Part shown: positions 3,387 through 49,002 of the stretch, piece by piece
Numbering within the stretch: position 1 is the first letter of the stretch
Layout: each line of letters begins with the position of its first letter
Source of the DNA: Candidatus Omnitrophota bacterium
GTDB taxonomy: Bacteria; Omnitrophota; Gorgyraeia; Duberdicusellales; 4484-171
Assembly: GCA_043823745.1 (NCBI GenBank)
Contig: JBDRAN010000005.1
Span: 4,459 to 68,458 of the forward strand
Length of the DNA stretch: 64,000 nucleotides
Reading direction: 5' to 3'
The notes under the pieces: generated by a model
Database searches by the model: none
What the model was told of the DNA's origin: nothing
The model's input: the letters and a program-made list of their open reading frames with translations, nothing else
Program-made: the position numbers and the translations under genes

Positions 3387-4973
3387 TTACTTAAGAATCT
3401 TTTCGGCTTCTTTACGATATGCGTCCATAACATACGGGATGCCGGAAATTTTAGTAGCCTCTTCAGTCAGGCTCATAAGATCTTTCCGGGAAATACTCTG
3501 GAGGCTAAAGTTACGCGAACCAGCCATAAGCTGCTGGAGGCCAACTTTAATTCTCTGAGAGAAAGTGTAAATGGCAACCGCGCCCAGCGGGATCTCATTG
3601 ATATCTTTGCCATATTTTTCTTTCAACTCTTCATAGGAGACAAAGATCTCTTCTGCTTTTTTGCCAAATTCGGAAACGGTGGGCGGAAGCGTGTTGTTCT
3701 TGATCCAATCGCCGATATTTTTACCGACAAAACCGGGGATCATCAACGCTCTTCCCATGCACACCGCTTTAACGTACGGTGCGCCCAACGCTATGACCTT
3801 AAAAATATGGTCTTCAAGAGCGAACCCTCCGGCAATCGCGATATCGGGAATACGCATTTTTTTCTTAGCCAACTTCTCGCAGAACTCATACGTAAGAGCC
3901 TGAAGATAGAAGGTCGGGATTCCCCACTCCTGCATCATGCGCCATGGACTCATCCCGGTTCCGCCCGGAGCGCCGTCAATCGTTAAGAGATCGATTTTGG
4001 CCATTGAAGAAAATTTGAGCGCCTGTGCAAGTTCAACCATGGAGTACGCGCCCGTCTTAAGGGTAATGCGCTTAAAACCCAGATCCCGCAGCCGCTTGAT
4101 CTCCTTCATGAAGCCTCCCTCGGAAACAAACCCCAAACGCGAATGACGCTCAAATTCCTTAATCGCGCCCGCCTTAAAGGCTTCTTCGGTAGCTTTGACT
4201 GTCGGATCGGGCGTTACGATGTATCCGCGCCGTTTCAATTCTTTGGCGCGCGCTAAATCTTTTACTTTAATTTCGCCGCCGATGCATTTTGCTCCCTGAC
4301 CCCACTTTAATTCGATTGTATCAAGTTTATGTTTTTTGCGCACATATTCGGCAACGCCTAAGCGAGTGTCCTCAACGTTCATCTGCACGAGTATCTCGCC
4401 ATAACCGTCATGGAAACGCTTATAAAGCTCAATGCGCCGGTCCATATCGGGGGCGTTGGCAATCTTTCCTTTCGCGTCGAGTTCAAGTTTTGGATCGATA
4501 CCACAAACATTTTCACCGCAGACGATCGTGACGCCGGAGATAGCAGCCCCGACCGCGAAATGCTCCCAGTTTTTACGGGCAATTTCTGTTGAGCCCAGCG
4601 CCCCGGTAAAAATAGGAACTTTCATCTTAACTTTTTTATCCCAGCCATAGTCGGTCTCGGTGTTAACCGAAGGGAATGTTGCCGTGTCGGGATTTGCCTG
4701 GACACCCTTCGGCAAGCCATGTGCGCCGGCGGCATAGCCCTGGATATTCAAATGGGAATAATCGACCGGGTAATCCTTATCTCCCCCTGCGGTCATTTCT
4801 CCGAAAGGTCCCGGATAAATTACTTCGCGTCCGCGGAATGAAGACTTAAAAACTTCGCAATTTCCACGGCATGATTCTAGACAGCGAGAACAGAGCCCCG
4901 AACATGGAACAACGTTTTTTGAGCGATTAAAAGTCCTAGTCGCGTCATTGCCGGCCGGTGAGCGTAAATTCAT
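3387..4973 (-). CDS. glutamate synthase-related protein (GltS FMN-binding domain, archaeal GltB type) with N-terminal Cys cluster
   Basis: A Cys-rich N-terminus (CSGLCSRCLESCRGNCEV) followed by glutamate-synthase central-domain signatures (GAxxxGGxG..., DLLTIDGAPGGTG). SD AAGGAGG. Confidence 0.75.
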   Translation of the reverse strand: MNLRSPAGNDATRTFNRSKNVVPCSGLCSRCLESCRGNCEVFKSSFRGREVIYPGPFGEMTAGGDKDYPVDYSHLNIQGYAAGAHGLPKGVQANPDTATFPSVNTETDYGWDKKVKMKVPIFTGALGSTEIARKNWEHFAVGAAISGVTIVCGENVCGIDPKLELDAKGKIANAPDMDRRIELYKRFHDGYGEILVQMNVEDTRLGVAEYVRKKHKLDTIELKWGQGAKCIGGEIKVKDLARAKELKRRGYIVTPDPTVKATEEAFKAGAIKEFERHSRLGFVSEGGFMKEIKRLRDLGFKRITLKTGAYSMVELAQALKFSSMAKIDLLTIDGAPGGTGMSPWRMMQEWGIPTFYLQALTYEFCEKLAKKKMRIPDIAIAGGFALEDHIFKVIALGAPYVKAVCMGRALMIPGFVGKNIGDWIKNNTLPPTVSEFGKKAEEIFVSYEELKEKYGKDINEIPLGAVAIYTFSQRIKVGLQQLMAGSRNFSLQSISRKDLMSLTEEATKISGIPYVMDAYRKEAEKILK

Positions 4974-5192
4974 AGCCCCTCCTTTTATACAAATTATTTA
5001 TACAAAATATGCCTATTCCTTAAGGCACGCATGGTTAAAAATTAAAGGCTCATCCGGAGCCTAAAATAAAAAAAGCATCCCCCTCTACTTCAATGTAGAA
5101 AAGGACGCCTTTGTCCTTATAATGCGAAGGTATTCTACTTCCCGCGCGTTAGTTGTCAAGAAAAAGATTCGCCTTCAAAATAAGCGATAACC

Positions 5193-5564
5193 TCAACGCG
5201 CACCGCGATGTGCTAAATAATTAAGCAGCATCTGCGCATGCCCTTCGCTCTCGCTGGAAAATTTTATAACCGCCGAATACCATCCATGCCCACCCTGCCG
5301 CCAGCTGCGCAATACTTTCCCGCGCAACAGGAGCTCTTCTGACCTGCCGGATATAGCAATTCGCAACTCAACGAAAATGCCGACGCCGAATTTCTGTTTA
5401 TTCACCGATATCAATGCGCCGCTTTGTGAGGCTTGCGTCACATAGACGAGAAAGCCTTCCTGGCCAAGCTCTTTGCACGAACAGATACCTTTGAGCGGAG
5501 GCACAGGGTCAATCCGCTTTGAAGCGCGTCGCTCGAAAAACCCAAGTTTACGTAAAAAGTTCAT
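5193..5564 (-). CDS. PilZ-domain protein (putative c-di-GMP receptor)
   Basis: RRASKRI (RxxxR) and QASQSGALISV (D/NxSxxG-like) motifs. The start is moved to the internal ATG 9 nt after AGGAGG. Confidence 0.55.
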   Translation of the reverse strand: MNFLRKLGFFERRASKRIDPVPPLKGICSCKELGQEGFLVYVTQASQSGALISVNKQKFGVGIFVELRIAISGRSEELLLRGKVLRSWRQGGHGWYSAVIKFSSESEGHAQMLLNYLAHRGAR

Positions 5565-5580
5565 ACCAAGCACCTCCTAG

Positions 5581-5690
5581 CGCAGTAAGCGCATGTCGGC
5601 TGTTCCAATTAAGCCGGATATTGCGCAGTAAGCGCATATCGGCTGTTCCAATTAAGCCGGATATTGCGCAGTAAGCGCACACCGGCTATT
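5581..5690. repeat. tandem direct repeat, 43-bp unit x2 plus a diverged partial third copy; each unit contains a short hairpin (CGGCTG...AGCCGG)
   Basis: 5581-5623 and 5624-5666 are identical except one base (CGCAGTAAGCGCAT[G/A]TCGGCTGTTCCAATTAAGCCGGATATTG). 5667 onward begins CGCAGTAAGCGCACACCGGCTATTG. Confidence 0.9.
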
Positions 5691-5837
5691 GTAACGCAGA
5701 AGCGTACATACCTCGCCTCAAAGGAATGGCGAGTATGCGCCTTCTGCGCTACCGGCGCAATTTTTGCCTAGAAGGGCAATACTGGCGCTATGCCTCTTAG
5801 CGCCAGGTGCGATTACGCCGGGTATCGTGCAAAAGCG

Positions 5838-6371
5838 TTATTTTATTTTTTTAACGCGGTAACGGTAAATCGTAAGGCGCCCCGCTTCAGAAACGTTTAA
5901 TTCCCAACTATATCGATACTTATAATCAAAATTTTTTCCCGCAACGCCGGTACCTTTATGCCGGGCAACAATCTCGACCCTAAAGCGCTCACGCGGAAGT
6001 TGCTTGATCTTTATCTCGCCGACATCATATTCGTTGCTTAAAATTTCCGCGCGCTGTACCGCATACCAAGCGATAAAATCCTGATGAGTCCTTATCGTGG
6101 CTCCCGGCACTTCCATCTGTAAATCATTTTTAGCAAGATGGTAAAGAAAAAGAAAATCCTCAACCTGATGATCAAGCCAGGCAAACCAACGATAGACGAA
6201 ACTTTTAACATCGTTGTTGGTGGGGACATAGTGGCTGGTTGCGTCTGTTACTTGCGCGCGGGCCTGGATACCTTTCGTTTGGTTTGTGGGTAGCTGCGGT
6301 GTAGCGCCGAGCGAAAGAATCAACATAATAGCTACTATACTATAGCAAAAAAAATAATTTTTCGTTTTCAT
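5838..6371 (-). CDS. secreted hypothetical protein (signal peptide)
   Basis: N-terminal signal-like segment FFCYSIVAIMLILSLGATPQ. No recognised motif. Confidence 0.5.
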   Translation of the reverse strand: MKTKNYFFCYSIVAIMLILSLGATPQLPTNQTKGIQARAQVTDATSHYVPTNNDVKSFVYRWFAWLDHQVEDFLFLYHLAKNDLQMEVPGATIRTHQDFIAWYAVQRAEILSNEYDVGEIKIKQLPRERFRVEIVARHKGTGVAGKNFDYKYRYSWELNVSEAGRLTIYRYRVKKIK

Positions 6372-38719: not shown

Positions 38720-40018
38720 TTACTTATGCGCAGCGGGTGCCACCAAGCCGCGCCGCCGGGCGAGGACGCAAAGCGCTCGTATCTCTTCTTCCTTCGTCGC
38801 GAGCCCCTGATCGAGAACTACATCAAGAAGTTTTTCAAGAAGCCCGCCGTAGGCAGTATGCGGTTTAATACCGATGCGTTTTAAATCTTCACCGCGGACT
38901 TTAAGACGCACATGAGCGAGCGAATTCAAAAAATAACGAATGTTCGCGCGCAGGCGCGCGTTCGTATGGAAAGAATAGAGAAATACGATTGCTTCAAAAC
39001 TCAAAGGATTAAGCAGCCGGTAGATACGGTGCGTCGTAACAGGACGCGCCAGTATTTTTACTTTCGTAATATATTTTTTTATCGAAAGTACGCGGACACG
39101 CTCCCCTCTCCTAAAATCGAACGTCGAAAAAAACATATCAACCGCTCTCACCGAAGGTCTCATCAGCACCGCACTCAAGTACAGGAGCCAGATATCGAGC
39201 GGACGATGTTGCGAAAAATTCTTCTGGTATACACCAAGCGCCTGCCTGATGCGTCCGAAAAGCTTACGGCTTTCTTGAGTAAGACGGACGTTGGCAATAA
39301 AGGACAGTCCGTACATCTTTTCGATAGAGACTAAACACTTCCACGGATCGGGTTCCTTCAAAAGAAGCACGATCTCATCCCGAAGCCGATGCGGATGTAC
39401 AAGGGCCAGCGCGTGTTCCTGACGAGCGCGCGCGGCAAGCACCCTGGTACGTGGCTCGATGCGAAAACCGAAACGGTTCATAAAACGCACCGCGCGTATA
39501 ATGCGTGTGGGGTCATCACGGAAACTATTTGCGTGTAAAACTCTTATCAAACCTTTTTTAAGATCGTGTTGTCCGCCATAAAAATCGATACGTAATCCAT
39601 AATCTTCCCTATTAAGACTGATTGCCATCGCGTTAATCGTAAAATCTCGACGCAAGAGATCATCACGCAATGCTGCCGGCGTAACGCGAGGCAAGACTGC
39701 CTGTGATGCGTATGTTTCCTTACGCGCCGTGGCAAAATCAATTTTATGCGCACCGTAATAAACTGTTGCGGTACCAAAGGCATGGTGTCGTCTTAATTCT
39801 TTGTGCGCGACACGCGCAAATTCGCTCGCAAGCTTGATCGCGTCACCTTCAACAACCAGATCAAGATCGATAATTTCCTTCGCAAGGAGCAAATCCCGGA
39901 CTACACCGCCCACCAGGTATATCTTAAACCCAAGACGCTCAGATATAATACTTAAGGACTCGAGTATTTTTTTGAAATCATGATGTATGGTTGCAAGCTT
40001 AGAAATCATAATTCTCAT
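38720..40018 (-). CDS. tRNA nucleotidyltransferase/poly(A) polymerase family protein (CCA-adding enzyme-like)
   Basis: Pol-beta-type motif GGVVRDLLL...DLDLVV and RRDFTINA. Confidence 0.85.
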   Translation of the reverse strand: MRIMISKLATIHHDFKKILESLSIISERLGFKIYLVGGVVRDLLLAKEIIDLDLVVEGDAIKLASEFARVAHKELRRHHAFGTATVYYGAHKIDFATARKETYASQAVLPRVTPAALRDDLLRRDFTINAMAISLNREDYGLRIDFYGGQHDLKKGLIRVLHANSFRDDPTRIIRAVRFMNRFGFRIEPRTRVLAARARQEHALALVHPHRLRDEIVLLLKEPDPWKCLVSIEKMYGLSFIANVRLTQESRKLFGRIRQALGVYQKNFSQHRPLDIWLLYLSAVLMRPSVRAVDMFFSTFDFRRGERVRVLSIKKYITKVKILARPVTTHRIYRLLNPLSFEAIVFLYSFHTNARLRANIRYFLNSLAHVRLKVRGEDLKRIGIKPHTAYGGLLEKLLDVVLDQGLATKEEEIRALCVLARRRGLVAPAAHK

Positions 40019-40902
40019 TTTGCGCGAGGATGAAACTGCGCGTGAATCGCCTTAATCCTGCTCTTATTAACATGCGTATATATCTGGGTCGTTGTAATGC
40101 TGGCGTGCCCTAACATCTCCTGCACGCTGCGCAGGTCAGCTCCGTGCTCAAGAAGATGGGTCGCAAAAGAATGCCGAAACGTATGCGGGCTCACCCGCTT
40201 CTTAATGCCTACCTCTTTAACGGCACGTTTGATCATCTTCCAGATACTCTGACGGGATAAATGTCTCCCGCCCTGCGCCAAAAAAAGATACAACGAGGTT
40301 TTTTTGGCAAGGAGCGCGGGCCGCGCCTCGGTACAATACTTCTGGAGAAACTCCCGCGCAATACGGCCAAGCGGCACGATCCGCTCTTTTGAGCCTTTCC
40401 CCTTACATTTAATAAAACCAACTTCTAAATTAATATCGGCCACCTTAAGGTTTGACGCTTCTGAAACGCGCAAGCCACTGGCATACATCACTTCCAGTAT
40501 CGCCCTATCTCGTTTACCGTGCATATCGCGCAGATCAGGCACTTTCAAGATCCGCATTACATCATCGAAATCAAGACAATCGGGAATTTTCTTCTCGGTC
40601 TTTGGAGATTCAATGAGCTCGGTAGGATCGCTCGTCGAAACCTTTTCCCGCAACAAAAATTTATGAAAACTCTTAAGGGTCGACAGGACACGGGCGATGC
40701 TTATCGCCGACAAATTCTTGCGCAATGAAAAAAGAAAGTCAGTGATGTCTTTGCGGGTAATGGTAAGAGGGCTGGTTATCCCCCTTTGCTTCAAATGCTT
40801 TACGTAACAATCGAGATCATGCCCATAGGCATACAGAGAATTACCGGCAAGGCCTTTTTCAACCCGAAGGTAATCAAAGAATGCTTCGCGGTAGGCGTCC
40901 AT
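40015..40902 (-). CDS. xerD: site-specific tyrosine recombinase XerD-like
   Basis: 295 aa, C-terminal HTFRHSFATHLLEHGADLRSVQEMLGHASITTTQIYTHV with catalytic Tyr, and an N-terminal core-binding domain. It has no IntI-specific extra domain by length. Confidence 0.85.
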   Translation of the reverse strand: MDAYREAFFDYLRVEKGLAGNSLYAYGHDLDCYVKHLKQRGITSPLTITRKDITDFLFSLRKNLSAISIARVLSTLKSFHKFLLREKVSTSDPTELIESPKTEKKIPDCLDFDDVMRILKVPDLRDMHGKRDRAILEVMYASGLRVSEASNLKVADINLEVGFIKCKGKGSKERIVPLGRIAREFLQKYCTEARPALLAKKTSLYLFLAQGGRHLSRQSIWKMIKRAVKEVGIKKRVSPHTFRHSFATHLLEHGADLRSVQEMLGHASITTTQIYTHVNKSRIKAIHAQFHPRAK

Positions 40903-42131: not shown

Positions 42132-42908
42132 TTAACCTTTATATCCGCGATAATTAACCTTCACCAGGTACAATCCTCCTGCGGGCGCGGGCTCATTCCG
42201 ATATGGAACCGTACGCGCAAGGATCGCCTCGGCTTGCTCCAGACTTAAGATACCGGAGCCGACCTTCACTAAAAATCCAACAATATTACGCACCATAAAA
42301 CGCAGGAAACCATTCGCTTCGATATCAACATACAGAAAGCTGCCCCTCTTGATAACGCGCACCCCTTTCACCTCTCTTGCGCAATCATGATAGGTATGCG
42401 CCTCCTTCGCAAAGAGCGAAAAATCATGTTTGCCGATAAGACGTTTTGCCACATCCGCCATCGCGCGGCGGTTAAGTGGTTTTACTGTATGCCAGGCACG
42501 ATCAACCCAAAACACCGAAGGCTCTTTACCGTTTAAAATAATATACCGGTATATTTTCGAATGCGCGGCAAACCGCGCGTGGAAATCAAGCGGCATAAAA
42601 CGGGCACTTTTGACCCTGATATCCGCCGGCAGGAAAGTATTAAGCGCCCTCTTAATGTTAGACAAAGGGATTTTTGTATCAACAATAAAATTTGCCGCCT
42701 GAGCCTGAGCATGCACCCCTCTATCGGTGCGCGAGGCAGAGGTAAGCGCAACGCGCTTTTTAAAAAGCTTTTTGAGCGCCTGCTCCAGCTTCTGTTGAAC
42801 GGCAATCTCGCGCTTTCCCGACTTATTCTGGATTTGAAAGCCAAAATAGCGCGTTCCAACGTATTCAATAGTAAGAAGAATGTTTTTTTGCATAGTAATC
42901 GCTCTCAA
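42132..42908 (-). CDS. truA: tRNA pseudouridine(38-40) synthase
   Basis: LTIEYVGTRYFGFQ N-terminus and a catalytic RTDRGVHA motif. Confidence 0.9.
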   Translation of the reverse strand: MRAITMQKNILLTIEYVGTRYFGFQIQNKSGKREIAVQQKLEQALKKLFKKRVALTSASRTDRGVHAQAQAANFIVDTKIPLSNIKRALNTFLPADIRVKSARFMPLDFHARFAAHSKIYRYIILNGKEPSVFWVDRAWHTVKPLNRRAMADVAKRLIGKHDFSLFAKEAHTYHDCAREVKGVRVIKRGSFLYVDIEANGFLRFMVRNIVGFLVKVGSGILSLEQAEAILARTVPYRNEPAPAGGLYLVKVNYRGYKG

Positions 42909-43098: not shown

Positions 43099-43428
43099 AT
43101 GAAAAAATCAGGTTTCAATCGGAGACAGAAAATTACCATAGGCATAATTATAGCTCTTCTATTGCTCGTTATTATTTTTCCACCTCAAGTAATTGTGAAC
43201 GCCGGAAAAAAATGGTCGGGACCGTCATGGAGACCAATTTTCTACGTGGGACAAGTTTTTCACGATTTAGATAGACTTGATGGGCAAGAGGCACGGGGAT
43301 TTAAAGTCTCTGAAGATAGGGAATTTCGCGTTGAATTAGCCTGGTCGGTACTTTTTCTTGAATTATTTAGCATCCTTTTGATTGGTGGAATATTGACTCG
43401 TAGTTTTAAATCAAAGAATAAAACCTAA
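43099..43428 (+). CDS. cassette ORF: small 2-TM membrane protein, unknown function
   Basis: 109 aa. The TAA stop (43426-43428) lies inside the ACCTAAC box of the downstream attC-like site. Confidence 0.6.
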   Translation: MKKSGFNRRQKITIGIIIALLLLVIIFPPQVIVNAGKKWSGPSWRPIFYVGQVFHDLDRLDGQEARGFKVSEDREFRVELAWSVLFLELFSILLIGGILTRSFKSKNKT

Positions 43429-43497
43429 CAACTTCATCCAGCCGACCCAACTCGCCCCTATCGGGGCTTCGTCGTGCGGCTGATGTCGGTGTTATGT
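43423..43497 (+). repeat. attC-like site 1 (75 bp)
   Basis: ACCTAAC...ATCCAGCCGACC...GCGGCTGAT...GTTATGT. The L'' and L' arms pair with one bulged C. Confidence 0.65.
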
Positions 43498-43525
43498 GAA
43501 AATAAAAATAAATAAGGAGGTGCGT

Positions 43526-43903
43526 ATGCGTATCTTGGGGAATATCGTATGGATGATACTCGGTGGAATATTAATATTTTTATACTATTGTCTTGGATGT
43601 ATTGTTCTCTGTATAACAATTATCGGAATACCATTTGGTATTCAATGTTTTAAAATGGCGACTCTAGCTCTGATGCCTTTCGGAAAAGAAGTAAAAAATG
43701 AAGAGAAAAGCACAGGCGCTATACCAACTATAATGAATGTTCTCTGGTTGCTCTTTTTTGGAGTTGAAATAGCAATTGTTCACTTATTTTTTGCCTTAAT
43801 ATTCGTCATTACAATAATTGGGATACCATTTGCTAAACAACATATGAAACTTGCAGCATTAGCGTTAACGCCCTTCGGGAAAGAAATAATAAAAATCACA
43901 TAA
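43526..43903 (+). CDS. cassette ORF: YccF-like (DUF307) inner membrane protein with internal duplication
   Basis: ATG 5 nt after AAGGAGG. Two repeats of ITIIGIPFG...K(M/L)A.LAL.PFGKE, characteristic of the YccF family. The track's GTG start at 43496 lies inside the attC and is rejected. Confidence 0.7.
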   Translation: MRILGNIVWMILGGILIFLYYCLGCIVLCITIIGIPFGIQCFKMATLALMPFGKEVKNEEKSTGAIPTIMNVLWLLFFGVEIAIVHLFFALIFVITIIGIPFAKQHMKLAALALTPFGKEIIKIT

Positions 43904-43974
43904 CAAAGCAATCCAGCCGACCTTACCTCCGCCCTATCGGGCTTCGGCAAGGCGGCTGATTTCGAGTGTTATAT
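43898..43974 (+). repeat. attC-like site 2 (77 bp)
   Basis: ACATAAC (contains the ORF stop)...ATCCAGCCGACC...GGCGGCTGAT...GTTATAT. Confidence 0.65.
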
Positions 43975-43997
43975 GAGAAAAATAAAAAGGAAAATCA

Positions 43998-44444
43998 ATG
44001 AAAAAGACCTTTATTTTATGTTTAACAATATTATTTTTTACAAATTTTTCTTACGCTGAAACAGAATATGAAAAAGGAGGTATCATTGTTGGTATTATTA
44101 GCAAAAAACAGCCAATCGCAATCGGTGAACAAATCTGTTCGGATACGGTAACGTGGGGAATAATTAAAAATGGGGAATTTATAGGAAACAATAGCGAAGA
44201 GAATGTTGAGATATATACATATGAGGGAATAGAAGATAATGAGGTAATAATGTCTACTAGAGGAAGATCATATGGTTATCTTAAATTACCATTAAATAAA
44301 GATAATCAAGCAATATGGCATGTTTCCTCTGAGGCGGACTTTATCATTTCTGTTATAGATAAAGAAAAAAACATAACAGTTAAATTGACAAATGGTTTGG
44401 ACAGCTGGAAAAGCATATTCTATGAAAAGGATTTAGGGAGCTAA
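43998..44444 (+). CDS. cassette ORF: secreted protein, unknown function
   Basis: 148 aa with signal peptide MKKTFILCLTILFFTNFSYA. Low GC. Confidence 0.6.
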   Translation: MKKTFILCLTILFFTNFSYAETEYEKGGIIVGIISKKQPIAIGEQICSDTVTWGIIKNGEFIGNNSEENVEIYTYEGIEDNEVIMSTRGRSYGYLKLPLNKDNQAIWHVSSEADFIISVIDKEKNITVKLTNGLDSWKSIFYEKDLGS

Positions 44445-44499
44445 TACAAAACAACCAATCCCAAAGTAAAAGAACAATTTAAAGAATGAATAAAAAACC

Positions 44500-44574
44500 A
44501 TATAACAAGTCAATCCACCTGACCCTCGAAGCGCGTTAAGCGCGCCTCTCGGGCAGGTGATTTTTATGTTAGAT
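44500..44574 (+). repeat. attC-like site 3 (75 bp)
   Basis: ATATAAC...ATCCACCTGACC...GCAGGTGAT...GTTAGAT. Stem bases covary with sites 1 and 2. The central hairpin is GCGCGTTAAGCGCGC. Confidence 0.65.
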
Positions 44575-44848
44575 GGAAAAAATAAAAATATAAATGAAAT
44601 CAATTAATACTATTTTAAAAATTGCCAGTGTTATTGTAATCGGTTTTCTATCTGAAATGCTTAGTAAATTTATTATTCTTTACTGCTCCTACCATTTATA
44701 GCTATAATTCAGTAGGCAGGCTAAGCGGGATGGGTTCGATATATCTGCTTCTGTTAGTTTTTCTTTACAGCAGTTTCACCTGTGCCATTTTTTTATTTAG
44801 GAAGGAAAAAATAAAACTTACTCTCCTATCCTAATTGTTGGCGGGTTT

Positions 44849-45247
44849 TTGTTGTCTGGTATGATATTTTTAGCTATGCCTGGCAAATCCTTAAAATTTC
44901 CTCATAATGCACCCATGGATGAACGTAATAATTGGGCTTTACACAACCTTAACCCATATTATTCGATAGCCGTTGAAAAAATAAAAAGCCGAGAGGCTAT
45001 ATTGAACGATGTGGGAGAAAATATAAAAATTGCTCCTAGCCCGTATTCCAATAATGGCATGTATGATGGCATAGTAGAATTTACCTTTGACATTGAAGGA
45101 AACAAAGGGCGGGGACAATGCGAAATAGCATATAGACACTATGGTTCAAAACCACACCATTGGTATAAAATAAAATGGAATTTTAATGGAGAAAGCAAAT
45201 TTTTAATAGGTCAAAATAATTATATTTTTAATCCTGTCGAACAGTAA
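44849..45247 (+). CDS. cassette ORF: hypothetical protein (start uncertain: TTG 44849 or ATG 44861)
   Basis: 132 aa. The frame is open from 44801 after a GGAAGGA SD-like sequence. No motif recognised. Confidence 0.5.
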   Translation: MLSGMIFLAMPGKSLKFPHNAPMDERNNWALHNLNPYYSIAVEKIKSREAILNDVGENIKIAPSPYSNNGMYDGIVEFTFDIEGNKGRGQCEIAYRHYGSKPHHWYKIKWNFNGESKFLIGQNNYIFNPVEQ

Positions 45248-45277
45248 TATTGAAAATTATTTGTATGCAACAAAAAC

Positions 45278-45352
45278 ATCTAACAACTCACTCCACCGGA
45301 TCCAATGAGCGGCTTTTCAAGCGTTCATCGTGCCGCTGATACGGTGTTAGAT
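45278..45352 (+). repeat. attC-like site 4 (75 bp)
   Basis: ATCTAAC...CTCCACCGGATCC...GCCGCTGAT...GTTAGAT. The terminal boxes are near-perfect reverse complements (ATCTAACA / TGTTAGAT). Confidence 0.6.
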
Positions 45353-45361
45353 TATAAGGAA

Positions 45362-45967
45362 ATGAAAGCATTGGATTTAAAAAAATTCCTGGAAGATGCC
45401 CCTTTCCCAAAAAGAGAGATATTCCTCCACGGACTACACTGGCAACCCTCAAGTGATAGCTTGCCAATGGAATTAAAGATAAACAATGCAGCGCAAACAA
45501 CCGTTGGGCTATTTTTTCTACCTTTATCTTTGGCTCTTTTTCTCTTGGGAATACCCCTTATATTTTGGGCTAACGAAATGGGTTTTATAGCTATTATAAT
45601 ATCTTTAGTGCTTATGGCCCTTGGCGCTATGGGCATAAAATACTCAATAGAACAAATTTTCAAAAGGGAAAAATTAATTATATCGCACAGTTATGTAGAG
45701 CTTATAAGTACAATGTTTCGATCAAACAAGAGCTGGAAAGAACCTCTTGAAAAATACAAAGGTGTTCTGGGATACAAACAGCGCTCCTGTACGGTGCAAG
45801 GAATCTATATGCCGGGGGTCTGGTGCATTATACTTTTACACCCCGAGCATGATAAGTCTGTATTACTGTACTTACACAATTCTGAAGAAAAAGACTCTAC
45901 ATTCGAGACTAAGCTTCAACGTTTCTCAAAATTATTAAAGAAAGGAATTATCCGGGAGGGTGCATGA
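45362..45967 (+). CDS. cassette ORF: 2-TM membrane protein with cytoplasmic N- and C-terminal regions, unknown function
   Basis: The ATG at 45362 follows ATAAGGAA. The track's longer version (45305) begins inside the attC and is rejected. It overlaps the next ORF by ATGA. Confidence 0.6.
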   Translation: MKALDLKKFLEDAPFPKREIFLHGLHWQPSSDSLPMELKINNAAQTTVGLFFLPLSLALFLLGIPLIFWANEMGFIAIIISLVLMALGAMGIKYSIEQIFKREKLIISHSYVELISTMFRSNKSWKEPLEKYKGVLGYKQRSCTVQGIYMPGVWCIILLHPEHDKSVLLYLHNSEEKDSTFETKLQRFSKLLKKGIIREGA

Positions 45968-46695
45968 AAAAATTATATTTCTTGCTTGGGGTCATTGTCG
46001 TGGGTATTTTTTTTAATGTTCCTACAACGTACGGCGAAGGCTTCCTTGATAAAACAATCGATTACCTTAAAAATAAAAGAATTGATGCTCTGGAACAACA
46101 AGCACGCAGTGTGGTACGAATAATTATCCGTGGCATAGAAGGCTATACCGATGATCATGGTGGTGCCTGCCCTCAAAGCGTAGAAGAGCTCACGAAAGGA
46201 AATCCACCCTACCTTACTCCCGGGATCCTTAGCCTCGCAACCGAAAAATATATATATTCGATCGAATCCGGACAAAATAGTTGTAAGGTTTTGAGGGTAC
46301 CAAAAGAATGCGGCAAGACAGGCAATTTGATTTTTTCAATGGAAATCATGAAAGGTGAGAATCCGTGTGGGGCGGGTATACAGCCCCTAAAAAGAAGTGA
46401 GATGATGGCTCAAATGGATCTAAGCATGTTCAGCTCTGTAATTGACGAGTACATTTCAAATAATAATGGTGCCTATCCGTTAGAAGAAAATAATCTTAAG
46501 CAGGCACTTGATGTTTCGAAGTTTCCGGGGTCGGATAGGATTTTTGATGATAATGGTAAAGGTGGGTACACGTATACAGTCGAGTATAGATCAAACGGAT
46601 ATAAAATAACCGCATTGCCTACGGAGTGTGGCAAAACCGGTACCAGGATATTTACAGAGGAAATCGTTGAATTAATACAGCAGTGTAAACAATAA
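45964..46695 (+). CDS. cassette ORF: secreted protein with two tandem pseudopilin-like (GspG-like) repeats
   Basis: Sec signal peptide, then two repeats each with helix + Y..D(D/N).G(G/A).P + ...ECGKTG(N/T).IF..EI. Translationally coupled to the upstream ORF. Confidence 0.6.
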   Translation: MKKLYFLLGVIVVGIFFNVPTTYGEGFLDKTIDYLKNKRIDALEQQARSVVRIIIRGIEGYTDDHGGACPQSVEELTKGNPPYLTPGILSLATEKYIYSIESGQNSCKVLRVPKECGKTGNLIFSMEIMKGENPCGAGIQPLKRSEMMAQMDLSMFSSVIDEYISNNNGAYPLEENNLKQALDVSKFPGSDRIFDDNGKGGYTYTVEYRSNGYKITALPTECGKTGTRIFTEEIVELIQQCKQ

Positions 46696-46999
46696 TTGGT
46701 TAAGACGACACCCTCTGACAACGATACCCAGCGGGCCTAAAACCGCCGGCTGATTGAGCATATCAAAGTATTGGGCCGTCGAATCCTTGTAATGACAAGA
46801 AAATGTTCCACATTTTCGATAATGTATGGATTCGACATAATTCAACCGGCTATTCTTTGTGCCCCTGCGGCTGCAAAGAATGAGGTTTCATTAACTGATT
46901 TTTTGCATTAAACTAAAAAAAATGAAAAAAAATAAAACTATCGTAACAGTAATCTTGCTGCCAATACTCAATACTATTTATTTGTAATAAAGGAGAAAT

Positions 47000-47884
47000 G
47001 TGTTCAGCCTCATTGCGCTTGTTAAGGAACGCCCTCGCTTATACATCTTTTTAAAGATCACCGGATTACTATATATTCATAGGTATCTCCGAGATTTCTA
47101 TCATCTTTTAAGATACGGCAGAAAAAAGGAAATTATTATCAATGGGATGTCATTTATGTTTCCCATTATGGATAACGCTACACGAAATTTCTTTTTTGAT
47201 CCTTGTTGGCTTGGGGAAATTTGGGAAAAGGATGTTGTCCACCATTTCATTAAAAACTTAGAGGGATGCTCGTGCTTTATCGATATTGGAGCTCATGTTG
47301 GCTTTTATTCTCTTATCGCCGCAAAGATAATTGCCCCGCGAGGCGGGGTAGTACATGCTGTAGAAATGGATCTTGATAATATTACCCGGCTAAAATCGGC
47401 TATTCGGCTTAACAACCTGAATAATATCACCGTTCACCATGCAGCTATCGGAGATCACCAAGGGGAAGTGGAGTATTCTTGTTGCGGTGCCGAATGTAAT
47501 ACATTAAACATAGGAAGTGATAAGAGGGTTTATACTAAACGATCCGTTCAAATGATAACCTTGGATAATCTTGTCGCTACAGAACGGCTCAATCCAGATA
47601 TAATAAAAATTGACGTAGAAGGTGCTGAATATTTAGTCTTACTCGGAATGAGAAAAGCACTCCGCTTAAACAACCTTAAAATCTATTGTGAGGCTCATCT
47701 ACATCAAGACAGAGGAAGTTTATCCTCTTTCGGGCATTCTCCGAAAGATGTAGTGCAGGTATTAAAAGAATATAGTTACACAATTGAGCAAATAGGCCTA
47801 AAACAAGGCAGTAAGATAAAACAAGGCATTATCCATGATCTTCAGGACACAAAAGAAAATGTAATGCTTTTTATACATAGGTAA
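47000..47884 (+). CDS. FkbM-family SAM-dependent methyltransferase
   Basis: IDIGAHVGFYS and IKIDVEGAE motifs. GTG at 47000 follows AAAGGAGAAAT. An internal ATG start is possible. Confidence 0.75.
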   Translation: MFSLIALVKERPRLYIFLKITGLLYIHRYLRDFYHLLRYGRKKEIIINGMSFMFPIMDNATRNFFFDPCWLGEIWEKDVVHHFIKNLEGCSCFIDIGAHVGFYSLIAAKIIAPRGGVVHAVEMDLDNITRLKSAIRLNNLNNITVHHAAIGDHQGEVEYSCCGAECNTLNIGSDKRVYTKRSVQMITLDNLVATERLNPDIIKIDVEGAEYLVLLGMRKALRLNNLKIYCEAHLHQDRGSLSSFGHSPKDVVQVLKEYSYTIEQIGLKQGSKIKQGIIHDLQDTKENVMLFIHR

Positions 47885-47922: not shown

Positions 47923-49002
47923 CTATCGAGCGATGAGACACTCGGCAATCTGCACCGCGTTAAGTGCCGCGCCCTTTAGGAGATTATCCGCCACCACCCA
48001 CAGCCACATTCCGTTTTTAACAAACGGGTCTCTCCTGATACGCCCCACAAAAACCTCACCCTTACCCTCGACATCCTTAGGCATCGGATAAAGGTTCTTT
48101 GCCGGATCGTCAACGAGAATGATGCCGGGCGCGCGGGCCAGGAGGGCCTTAACTTTGGCGGGCTCCATGGGCTTTTTGGTTTCAATATAAATCGATTCAG
48201 AATGCCCGGTACGCACCGGAACACGCACCGTGGTAGCGGAAATCTTAATTTTGTTATCATGCATTATCTTATGTGTCTCGTTAACCAGCTTCCACTCCTC
48301 CGAGGTATAATCACAATCGCTAAACCCACCGATCTGAGGAAAAACATTATAGGCCAGCTGCTGGGGCATGGAGCGCTCGGCCACTGCTTGGATACTCTTG
48401 TATCCGCCGGCGGTAATCGAGGATGTTTCCTCGTTTAGCTGCTCAACCGCTGATTTTCCCGCGCCGCTTGAAGCCTGCAGGGTTGTCACAATAACGCGCT
48501 TAATACCCGCTTTTTTATATATAGGCCAGAGCGCGACTACCATCTGAATCGTTGAACAATTAGGGTTAGCGATAATTCCTTTATGCTTCTTTACCCCGTT
48601 AGAAATACCCGATGAACGGTGAAGGAACCAATTTCTAACGGGGTTAATATCCGAAGCATTTACTTCAGGAACGACCAACGGAACACCGGGCTGCATACGA
48701 AAATCAGCACCATTGTCAATAACAACCGCGCCCCGCTTGACCGCTTCATGCGCATAGGTTGCGGCTGCGCCCTTTTCCCCTTCGGTGCCGGCGAAAAGCG
48801 CTATATCGATACCATTAAAGCCTTGGGCTGATATAGCCTCGACCTTATATGATCGTCCGTCAACTTCTATCGCACGCGCCGAACGCGCGAAAACGCGCAA
48901 CGTCTCTACCGGAAAGTTAGATGCCCGCAGGCACCGCAACATCTCAATACCGACAACGCCCACACCCACCACACACACATTGTATTTAGTTTTTTTCTTC
49001 AT
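47923..49002 (-). CDS. asd: aspartate-semialdehyde dehydrogenase
   Basis: VCVVGVGVVG NAD motif, active-site Cys context (IANPNCSTI), and a C-terminal dimerisation domain. Confidence 0.95.
   Translation of the reverse strand: MKKKTKYNVCVVGVGVVGIEMLRCLRASNFPVETLRVFARSARAIEVDGRSYKVEAISAQGFNGIDIALFAGTEGEKGAAATYAHEAVKRGAVVIDNGADFRMQPGVPLVVPEVNASDINPVRNWFLHRSSGISNGVKKHKGIIANPNCSTIQMVVALWPIYKKAGIKRVIVTTLQASSGAGKSAVEQLNEETSSITAGGYKSIQAVAERSMPQQLAYNVFPQIGGFSDCDYTSEEWKLVNETHKIMHDNKIKISATTVRVPVRTGHSESIYIETKKPMEPAKVKALLARAPGIILVDDPAKNLYPMPKDVEGKGEVFVGRIRRDPFVKNGMWLWVVADNLLKGAALNAVQIAECLIAR

Follow-up and report, generated by a model that had tools for sequence, protein, structure and literature searches.

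Two overlapping open reading frames, ORF A and ORF B (public locus tags ABH865_01700 and ABH865_01705), were examined on contig JBDRAN010000005.1 (positions 4,459 to 68,458) of a metagenome-assembled genome (MAG) of Candidatus Omnitrophota. The whole 64,000-nucleotide (nt) stretch that was analysed is referred to as the window, and coordinates are those of the window unless another locus is named. ORF A encodes a predicted membrane hairpin followed by a PH-like domain, while ORF B encodes an apparently exported protein whose two tandem units belong, by homology, to a family of type IVa pilin heads. The pair forms the last unit of an array of attC-like sites.

The overlap of the two genes by an ATGA, described in an earlier sequence-only reading of this DNA, was confirmed (GTGCATGAAAA at 45960-45970), and Shine-Dalgarno or Shine-Dalgarno-like sequences were found in front of both starts (Table 1). 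The two genes would be co-transcribed, possibly with translational coupling. For ORF A, the publicly annotated start giving a protein of 220 amino acids (aa) was rejected, as it lies inside an attC site and homologues have short N-termini. The 201-aa start adopted here is situated just past the attC R' box GTTAGAT and agrees with the N-terminal lengths of the homologues. Promoter-like sites were no commoner than in shuffled sequence.

Table 1. Features of the ORF A/ORF B locus and of the attC-like array, in window coordinates.
Feature	Position	Strand	Description and basis
attC-like site 1	43423-43497	+	R'' ACCTAAC, R' GTTATGT; pattern, alignment, fold z -4.05
attC-like site 2	43898-43974	+	R'' ACATAAC, R' GTTATAT; pattern, alignment, fold z -4.71
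attC-like site 3	44500-44574	+	R'' ATATAAC, R' GTTAGAT; pattern, alignment, fold z -5.58
attC-like site 4, 5' boundary of the ORF A/ORF B unit	45278-45352	+	R'' ATCTAAC, R' GTTAGAT (45346-45352), boxes perfect; pattern, alignment, fold z -1.9
Shine-Dalgarno-like AAGGAA for ORF A	45356-45361	+	Abuts the ORF A ATG; read from sequence
ORF A	45362-45967	+	201 aa; predicted inner-membrane protein: N-terminal strand, transmembrane hairpin, cytoplasmic PH-like beta-sandwich, C-terminal helix
ORF A N-terminal family motif HGLHWQPSSDSLPM	45428-45469	+	L34 and P35 nearly invariant; residues 36-39 next, modelled as strand
ORF A transmembrane hairpin	45500-45637	+	Cores about 47-68 and 74-92; 5-residue loop WANEM; model helices 43-73 and 75-100
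ORF A PH-like domain	45662-45937	+	Residues about 101-192; carries W-x-E-P-L-x-x-Y-x-G-V; AlphaFold2 and Foldseek
Shine-Dalgarno GGGAGG for ORF B	45954-45959	+	Within the ORF A 3' end; spacing to the ORF B ATG 4 nt; read from sequence
ATGA overlap, ORF B start/ORF A stop	45964-45967	+	
ORF B	45964-46695	+	243 aa; putative export signal, then two tandem pilin-head units
ORF B N-terminal export signal MKKLYFLLGVIVVGIFFNVPTTYG	45964-46035	+	Probable decayed prepilin leader, now Sec/signal peptidase I-like
Pilin-head unit 1	46036-46377	+	Residues 25-138; long helix, short helices, three strands (model); Cys116, Cys135
Pilin-head unit 2	46378-46692	+	Residues 139-243; layout as unit 1; Cys222, Cys241
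Decayed attC 3' of ORF B	46713-46766	+	R''/L'' CTCTGACAACGATACCCAGCGGGCC and L' GCCGGCTGAT retained, R' GTTRRRY gone; alignment

The tandem repeat proposed for ORF B was borne out, the alignment of its two halves covering 96 residues with 28% identity (E = 3e-11) and all of the cited motifs being present (GYTDDHGGACP, SNNNGAYPLEE, ECGKTGNLIFSMEI and ECGKTGTRIFTEEI). No usable match to ORF B itself was obtained in Pfam or NCBIfam, and a search of 5.8 billion protein clusters returned three relatives besides the protein itself. P0002 (58% identity) and P0003 (51%) are full-length homologues, both with two units. The third, P0004, is a single-unit protein of 133 aa with a prepilin-type N-terminus (MNKKSYTLVEIMIVMGV), and its match to ORF B (E = 1e-8) supports the suggestion that a pilin- or pseudopilin-type globular domain has been tandemly duplicated in ORF B. 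Ten further proteins were recovered with a profile of the family (E 5e-19 to 6.5e-8). Relatives of 131-148 aa found in this way carry GFTL[IV]EIM leaders, and the cutoff of the N_methyl family (PF07963; 21.2 bits) was passed by P0004, P0006, P0007, P0012 and P0015 with 22.9-28.2 bits. Another single-unit relative, P0008, has an ordinary-looking signal peptide of the Sec type.

Among the remaining relatives, P0009, P0010, P0011 and P0014 (Omnitrophota, 252-264 aa) were observed to have a head of the ORF B type preceded by a zinc-ribbon/B-box, a TM2 domain and the helix AIAIPNLLRAR, which is pilin-like. These fusions are a third mode of anchoring this head without a prepilin leader.

The likeness to GspG that had been suggested from motifs was recovered at the profile level. 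Near-threshold matches to Pfam T2SSG (PF08334) were found in 7 of 14 family members (best 3.7e-4) and matches to ComP_DUS in four, and both survived removal of the hydrophobic N-terminus. The top match of a head-only profile (alignment A5) among PDB sequences was XcpT/GspG (2KEP), in register although not significant (E = 0.19). Pairwise comparison of this profile with Escherichia coli GspG using hhalign gave P = 1.3e-4 over 67 columns in register (54% probability), while GspH (0.34), GspI (0.76), PpdD (0.23) and bacterioferritin (0.44), included as controls, were not picked out. Furthermore, at a metagenomic locus (L139) three genes were found in head-to-tail order immediately upstream of pilM (PilM_2, 167 bits). 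Two of these are prepilin genes by N_methyl, and the third, with a degenerate leader and no N_methyl match, was matched by the ORF B head profile with P = 1.6e-18 (hhalign). Positions 3812-6280 of this locus (Joint Genome Institute metagenome contig Ga0172371_10028772) constitute a type IVa pilus locus. Taken together, the relatives with prepilin leaders, the T2SSG and GspG matches and the linkage to pilM indicate, on sequence grounds, that the ORF B family is an Omnitrophota-specific type IVa pilin family, of which each ORF B unit would represent one head.

An AlphaFold2 model of ORF B (predicted local distance difference test (pLDDT) 84.5, predicted template-modelling score (pTM) 0.76) showed each unit as a long helix with two short ones and three strands in antiparallel arrangement. 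The top Foldseek hits of the whole model (phiKZ neck proteins and LolA, with template-modelling scores (TM-scores) of about 0.2) were discarded as meaningless. Each unit contains two cysteines separated by 19 positions (116 and 135 in unit 1, 222 and 241 in unit 2), and the columns in which they fall are nearly invariant across the family. Type IVa pilins are disulfide-bonded in their C-terminal region, and each ORF B head is probably closed by a C-terminal disulfide in the same manner (Cys116-Cys135 and Cys222-Cys241).

ORF B shares with type IVa pilins and GspG the layout of the head, in which an amphipathic alpha1-C has Y-x-x-x-N-G-x-Y-P at its end and is accompanied by an alpha-beta loop, an antiparallel sheet and a cysteine pair at the C-terminus. 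Proteins with genuine prepilin leaders, one of them encoded next to pilM, are among its homologues. However, it lacks the prepilin cleavage and methylation motif, Glu5 and a continuous hydrophobic alpha1-N. It also differs in that two heads are present per chain, that the gene is situated in an attC array rather than in a pilus or secretion operon, and that pilins were not recovered by Foldseek.

The N-terminus of ORF B was examined with regard to the mode of export. Hydropathy analysis identified one N-terminal hydrophobic segment. The start of the protein, MKKLYFLLG, gave no N_methyl match at E ≤ 0.1 and has no Glu5, and the residue at position -1 for prepilin peptidase would be Leu (KKL|YF), where a small residue (Gly, Ala or Ser) is needed. 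The corresponding starts of the full-length homologues are MKKSFTLIA for P0002 (from internal Met13) and MKKNYTLIA for P0003. Just upstream of P0002 (locus L003) lies a prepilin gene starting MKKSFTLIE, and about 30 nt at the starts of these two genes, ribosome-binding site included, are nearly identical. These homologue leaders, together with the segment shared with the prepilin gene, suggest that MKKLYFLLG is a further-decayed prepilin leader. The Y-G|E-G junction is conserved in all three full-length proteins, positions -1 and -3 being occupied by small residues (T-Y-G|E-G in ORF B) and position -5 by Pro. The AlphaFold2 model places a helix at residues 4-18, coil at 19-26 and a helix at 27-64, with pLDDT values of 50-67 in the first 30 residues. 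A continuous alpha1 with a hydrophobic N-terminal half was absent from the model, and unit 2 has no hydrophobic helix at all. The junction and the low-confidence coil favour Sec export with cleavage after Gly24, which would leave an acidic mature protein of 24 kDa (computed isoelectric point 5.1). A lipoprotein signal was rejected, there being no Cys in the signal region. The proposal that ORF B carries a Sec signal instead of a prepilin leader is thus plausible in view of the missing N_methyl match and Glu5, the T-Y-G|E-G junction, the Pro at -5 and the coil, with the nuance that the signal appears to be itself a decayed prepilin leader.

Two systems offer precedents by description. PilA-C of Geobacter (GSU1497) is the globular part of a pilin encoded without the polymerisation helix and with its own removable signal peptide; it always adjoins the truncated pilin gene GSU1496, to which it is functionally tied (PMC5174107). 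ORF B similarly combines pilin heads with a putative signal peptide and lacks the polymerisation helix, but GSU1497 is a single unit, whereas in ORF B the unit is duplicated in tandem and no helix-only pilin is encoded nearby as a partner. The PilY1/PilC tip adhesins are exported through Sec and signal peptidase I, are often disulfide-rich and act at type IV pili although they are not prepilins (PMC12918778). The role proposed below for ORF B would resemble theirs in that a non-prepilin, Sec-exported protein functions at type IV pili. In contrast to the small ORF B with its pilin heads, PilY1 is large, contains a beta-propeller and docks by beta-strand complementation.

ORF A matched itself alone in a word-indexed search, and no significant family was found for it in Pfam or NCBIfam. 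Exhaustive searching of 1.84 billion representatives with HMMER identified 18 remote relatives (E 1e-17 to 6e-4) sharing W-x-P-x(3-5)-L-P-M, two membrane helices and W-x-E-P-L-S-x-Y-x-G-V. The two transmembrane segments predicted earlier were borne out by hydropathy analysis (approximately residues 47-68 and 74-92). In an AlphaFold2 model built with the family alignment as input (pLDDT 92.8, pTM 0.83), a short strand near the N-terminus precedes two long helices that run antiparallel, after which come a sandwich of seven strands and a helix at the C-terminus. As the loop between the helices has no Lys or Arg while the C-terminal flank has four, both termini and the PH-like domain are predicted to be cytoplasmic. 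With the two termini thus placed on one side of the membrane, the conserved N-terminal segment may complete the PH-like sandwich. By the same positive-inside rule the tail would be cytoplasmic, so that ORF A does not readily suggest itself as a partner for ORF B in the periplasm.

The top Foldseek match of the ORF A model in the PDB was EROS (CYBC1) in the NOX2 complex (8kei_D; E = 3.7e-4, probability 1.0, 183 columns), followed by PTB and PH domains. EROS, which has been called an ortholog of plant Ycf4, is a eukaryotic chaperone of NOX2 consisting of antiparallel transmembrane helices, through which it contacts its client, and a cytoplasmic PH domain (doi 10.1101/2023.09.11.557130). An antiparallel transmembrane hairpin and a cytoplasmic PH-type sandwich with a terminal helix are also features of the ORF A model. 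However, the two proteins differ in sequence, and no EROS/Ycf4 family was detected for ORF A or its 18 relatives in Pfam or NCBIfam, nor did the profile of the ORF A family match any PDB sequence. Foldseek comparison with BFVD returned nothing significant; its weak hits included entries titled 'Bacterial PH domain protein'. Bacterial PH-domain membrane proteins and the families DUF6101 and DUF2244 resemble ORF A in their small size and in having a two-helix membrane hairpin followed by a PH-like domain, although ORF A matches none of these families and they have no known function, so that belonging to one of them would leave the mechanism unexplained. A single relative, P0029, passed the cutoff of DUF6101 (PF19596; 28.9 bits against 27, residues 89-227) in the homologous region, ORF A itself being unmatched. 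The ORF A family, an orphan family of cassette proteins, gains from the model a confidently predicted architecture of an EROS-like transmembrane hairpin and PH domain.

The long relatives of ORF A (363-426 aa; P0021, P0025-P0027, P0029-P0031 and P0033) were observed to contain two successive modules of a transmembrane hairpin and a PH-like domain, the second weakly resembling DUF2244, and two ORF A relatives match DUF2244 in this second module. The family consequently exists in one-module and two-module forms.

Both genes lie in an island (43.0-47.9 kb) that is low in G+C content, its genes having 31-40% against 47% for the window. All genes of the island are on the + strand, and it is flanked by truA (42132-42908) and asd (47923-49002), both on the - strand (Pfam). 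The small genes are spaced by four sites of 75-77 nt, each opening with an RYYYAAC-like box and closing with GTTRRRY. The pattern of the attC 5' half-site was met four times in the window, where chance would give 0.02 occurrences, and the bottom strand of sites 1-3 forms a bulged attC-like hairpin (z -4.05 to -5.58, with a weaker value for site 4). At least two attC sites of one type, oriented like the genes, make an array, and four were found here (43423-45352). No integron integrase was identified in the window, where the sole tyrosine recombinase is XerD (40015-40902). This gene was rejected as an integron integrase, since it scored 369 bits with the XerD equivalog TIGR02225 and 153 bits with the integrase model, for which the cutoff is 265. 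An attC array with no integrase in the window corresponds to the CALIN type (cluster of attC sites lacking integrase).

The half-site pattern was matched by at least 120 genome loci, many from lineages known for chromosomal integrons. At a locus of another Omnitrophota MAG (JAWOBO010000055.1; L074, 1-2200) the half-site adjoins a gene for a 429-aa integrase (TIGR02249, 400 bits, cutoff 265). Integron-type cassette arrays thus exist in Omnitrophota, where integrons seem little described according to a full-text literature search, which returned one paper naming both. Shared with integron cassettes and CALIN arrays are the small same-strand ORFs, the 75-77 nt RYYYAAC...GTTRRRY sites with attC-like bottom-strand hairpins, and the occurrence of this site type beside an IntI gene in another Omnitrophota MAG. 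The locus differs from integron cassettes in the absence of an integrase from the window, in the decayed site after ORF B and in the presence of two overlapping ORFs in one unit. That decayed site (46713-46766) did not fold above shuffled sequence (z -0.86) and was unmatched in the attC pattern search. With its R' box gone and its folding no better than that of shuffled sequence, the cassette, closed at the 5' end by site 4, is open at the 3' end, and the ORF A/ORF B pair is the last unit of the array and no longer excisable. A search of 40-50 kb against Rfam gave one chance snoRNA match and nothing else.

The statement that the fifth cassette alone contains two ORFs held only in part, as there is likewise more than one small ORF in cassette 4, these probably being fragments of one broken gene. 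The claim that ORF A and ORF B are a two-gene module was not upheld, as relatives of the two proteins were found together nowhere else among the loci examined. This outcome had been named in the earlier reading as one that would refute its proposal; the repeats of ORF B, being related and pilin-like by homology, do not go against that reading. No co-occurrence of the two families was detected with tblastn, either among 15 context loci or among 120 loci with attC sites (790 kb), and ORF A searched alone against metagenome contigs gave no match. P0003 (L001) is encoded by a lone gene between fpg and dcd with a promoter-like sequence upstream (TTGACA-17-TATATT), P0002 (L003) follows the prepilin gene described above, and P0004 and P0006 are encoded by lone genes. 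Relatives of ORF A likewise stand alone (a cassette at L007, and L010), with P0017 lying by itself between attC-like sites of another array and P0019 being encoded by a lone gene. ORF A and ORF B probably have separate evolutionary histories. At the locus of P0003 an uncalled ORF (L001, 6662-7156) lies downstream of that gene and overlaps its end; it encodes a product of about 150 aa with multiple transmembrane segments, no Pfam match and no relationship to ORF A by tblastn.

The explanation we favour, with somewhat better than even confidence for the picture as a whole, is that of a co-transcribed pair in a decayed cassette, in which ORF A is a PH-hairpin membrane protein and ORF B a Sec-exported double pilin head that does not polymerise. 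Both genes would be transcribed together from the cassette, the 4-nt overlap permitting coupled translation. ORF A would insert as a hairpin with its PH-like domain in the cytoplasm and, by analogy to EROS alone, would probably bind some membrane partner through its helices and cytoplasmic domain; nothing points to ORF B as this partner. The ancestor of ORF B would have been a type IVa pilin of the Omnitrophota-specific family, the head of which was duplicated in tandem, while the hydrophobic polymerisation helix and Glu5 were presumably lost and the prepilin leader decayed to a Sec-like signal. ORF B would then leave the cytoplasm by Sec, be cleaved and fold as two disulfide-locked pilin heads. 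Lacking the spine helix, it could not polymerise. Most likely the mature protein is soluble, does not polymerise and displays two pilin heads in the periplasm or at the surface. Its most plausible place of action is the neighbourhood of type IV pili, as a pilin-head protein that is either soluble or associated with the surface.

Several observations weigh against this explanation. The pilin fold anticipated for the repeats was not recovered when the whole ORF B model was compared with the PDB by Foldseek, which yielded no pilin and nothing at E ≤ 0.001. ORF B has no Pfam match of its own, and the tie to GspG and T2SSG consists of sub-threshold matches of its relatives and the one pairwise hhalign comparison at 54% probability. 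Its cleavage by signal peptidase I was judged from the junction residues and the AlphaFold2 model, the hydrophobic segment approximates a pilin alpha1-N in length, and two homologues retain K-K-S/N-F/Y-T-L-I, so that ORF B could remain membrane-anchored or even be processed by prepilin peptidase. The match of ORF A to EROS has TM-scores of 0.40 and 0.47 and an identity of 12%. The 4-nt overlap and the strong Shine-Dalgarno sequence inside ORF A argue for a shared history or function, which a view of two independent genes leaves unexplained. Finally, type IV pili of the host could be looked for in 64 kb of its genome. No pilin gene or gene for pilus or secretion assembly was found in the window, such linkage being seen for relatives only (the prepilin gene at L003 and pilM at L139).

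The strongest competing explanation is that ORF B is a membrane-inserted minor pilin without Glu5, comparable to GspK or PilX, that is built into a type IV pilus at its tip or close to it, where the second head would add a further tip domain. Glu5 is absent from tip minor pilins of the GspK/PilX type. The start of P0002, which together with its Shine-Dalgarno sequence is nearly identical to that of the adjacent prepilin gene over the first 30 nt, agrees with this, as does a hydrophobic stretch of approximately 20 residues from Tyr5 that resembles pilin alpha1-N. The family member at L139 is also in agreement, being third in a row of pilin genes directly before pilM despite its degenerate leader and lack of an N_methyl match. 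However, ORF B has Leu at -1 instead of Gly, Ala or Ser and no N_methyl match, and the conserved Y-G|E-G junction with its Pro at -5 suits signal peptidase I. Further points against a minor pilin are that AlphaFold2 interrupts the helix at residues 19-26, with low confidence, that unit 1 possesses in place of alpha1-N a hydrophilic helix extension common to the clearly Sec-type P0008, and that the window lacks pilus genes. We regard a minor pilin as distinctly the less probable identity of ORF B, although it keeps real weight because of the L003 and L139 loci.

The two genes might instead constitute a dedicated two-component module, in which the EROS-like ORF A, by binding the N-terminal helix of ORF B in the membrane, governs whether ORF B is inserted, retained or released. 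Coupled translation is suggested by the ATGA overlap with GGGAGG inside ORF A, both genes are in one attC-bounded unit, and EROS, the architecture of which ORF A shares, binds its client through transmembrane helices. However, the pairing is unique, the full-length ORF B homologues at L001 and L003 have no ORF A gene upstream, relatives of ORF A stand alone, the tblastn searches for co-occurrence were negative, and the periplasmic loop of ORF A comprises 5 residues. A dedicated module is thus unlikely.

It is more doubtful that ORF A and ORF B are silent, decaying passengers, functionless now, in a promoterless array without an integrase. This would be in keeping with the lack of an integrase in the window, the decay of the 3' attC, the fragmented appearance of cassette 4 next door and the occurrence of promoter-like sites at the frequency of shuffled sequence. 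Both reading frames are nevertheless intact with good ribosome-binding sites, both proteins gave confident AlphaFold2 models, and the family-invariant residues are kept.

A bolder reading, which we consider slightly less probable again, is a mobile module that tampers with pili. Here the EROS-like ORF A would hold or dose ORF B, which as a double pilin mimic without a spine would cap, poison or decorate the type IV pili of the host or of a neighbour. If true, this would be the first bacterial client for the EROS/Ycf4-type chaperone architecture and a new route, through integron cassettes, of regulating type IV filaments, and it could be of importance to a nanobacterial lineage whose members are thought to rely on contact between cells.

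Integron cassette arrays carry adaptive and defence genes. Least probable of all is the earlier suggestion of an anti-phage, exclusion or surface-modification module on a mobile cassette, for which the integron-type setting and the conceivable ability of a soluble pilin-head mimic to disturb pilus-dependent phages or partners could be cited, but which gained no support from PADLOC (no match at E ≤ 0.1 for ORF A, ORF B and three neighbouring cassette proteins), PHROGs (none for ORF A or ORF B), plasmids and phages (none for either protein by tblastn) or viral contigs (none for the ORF B family), and is opposed by the unconserved pairing and by P0003, the closest ORF B homologue with context, being encoded by an ordinary chromosomal gene with promoter-like sequence.

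Under the favoured explanation of a Sec-exported double head, ORF B would document the exit of a pilin from the world of filaments, its head having been duplicated, its polymerisation helix lost and its class III leader turned into a Sec-type signal, with intermediates visible in the relatives (MKKSFTLIE to MKKSFTLIA to MKKLYFLLG). New are the Sec-type tandem pilin-head protein and the uncharacterised PH-hairpin membrane family, while the CALIN array setting is already known. No current concept is changed, the findings would not surprise a specialist and the function of both proteins is inferred only; their use lies in annotation and as a lead on pilus-associated proteins of uncultured nanobacteria.

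Other genes of the island were also inspected. Cassette 2 (43526-43903) encodes an inner-membrane protein of the YccF family (Pfam YccF, 2.5e-39; NCBIfam NF008740, 153 bits), and the two YccF domains are mirrored within the gene by a repeat at the DNA level (86 nt, 71% identity). Cassette 4 (44575-45277) has the appearance of a broken gene, with a 35-aa ATG ORF at 44596 encoding a membrane-like peptide followed by short hydrophobic frames and then by a 132-aa ORF with a TTG start (44849-45247) and only a weak Coa1-like Pfam match (E = 0.0044). Between the decayed attC and asd, and immediately preceding the latter, lies a gene for an FkbM-family methyltransferase (47000-47884; TIGR01444, 104 bits) that has a G+C content of 38%, like the array, and is not followed by an attC. 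This gene may be a former cassette that is now fixed.

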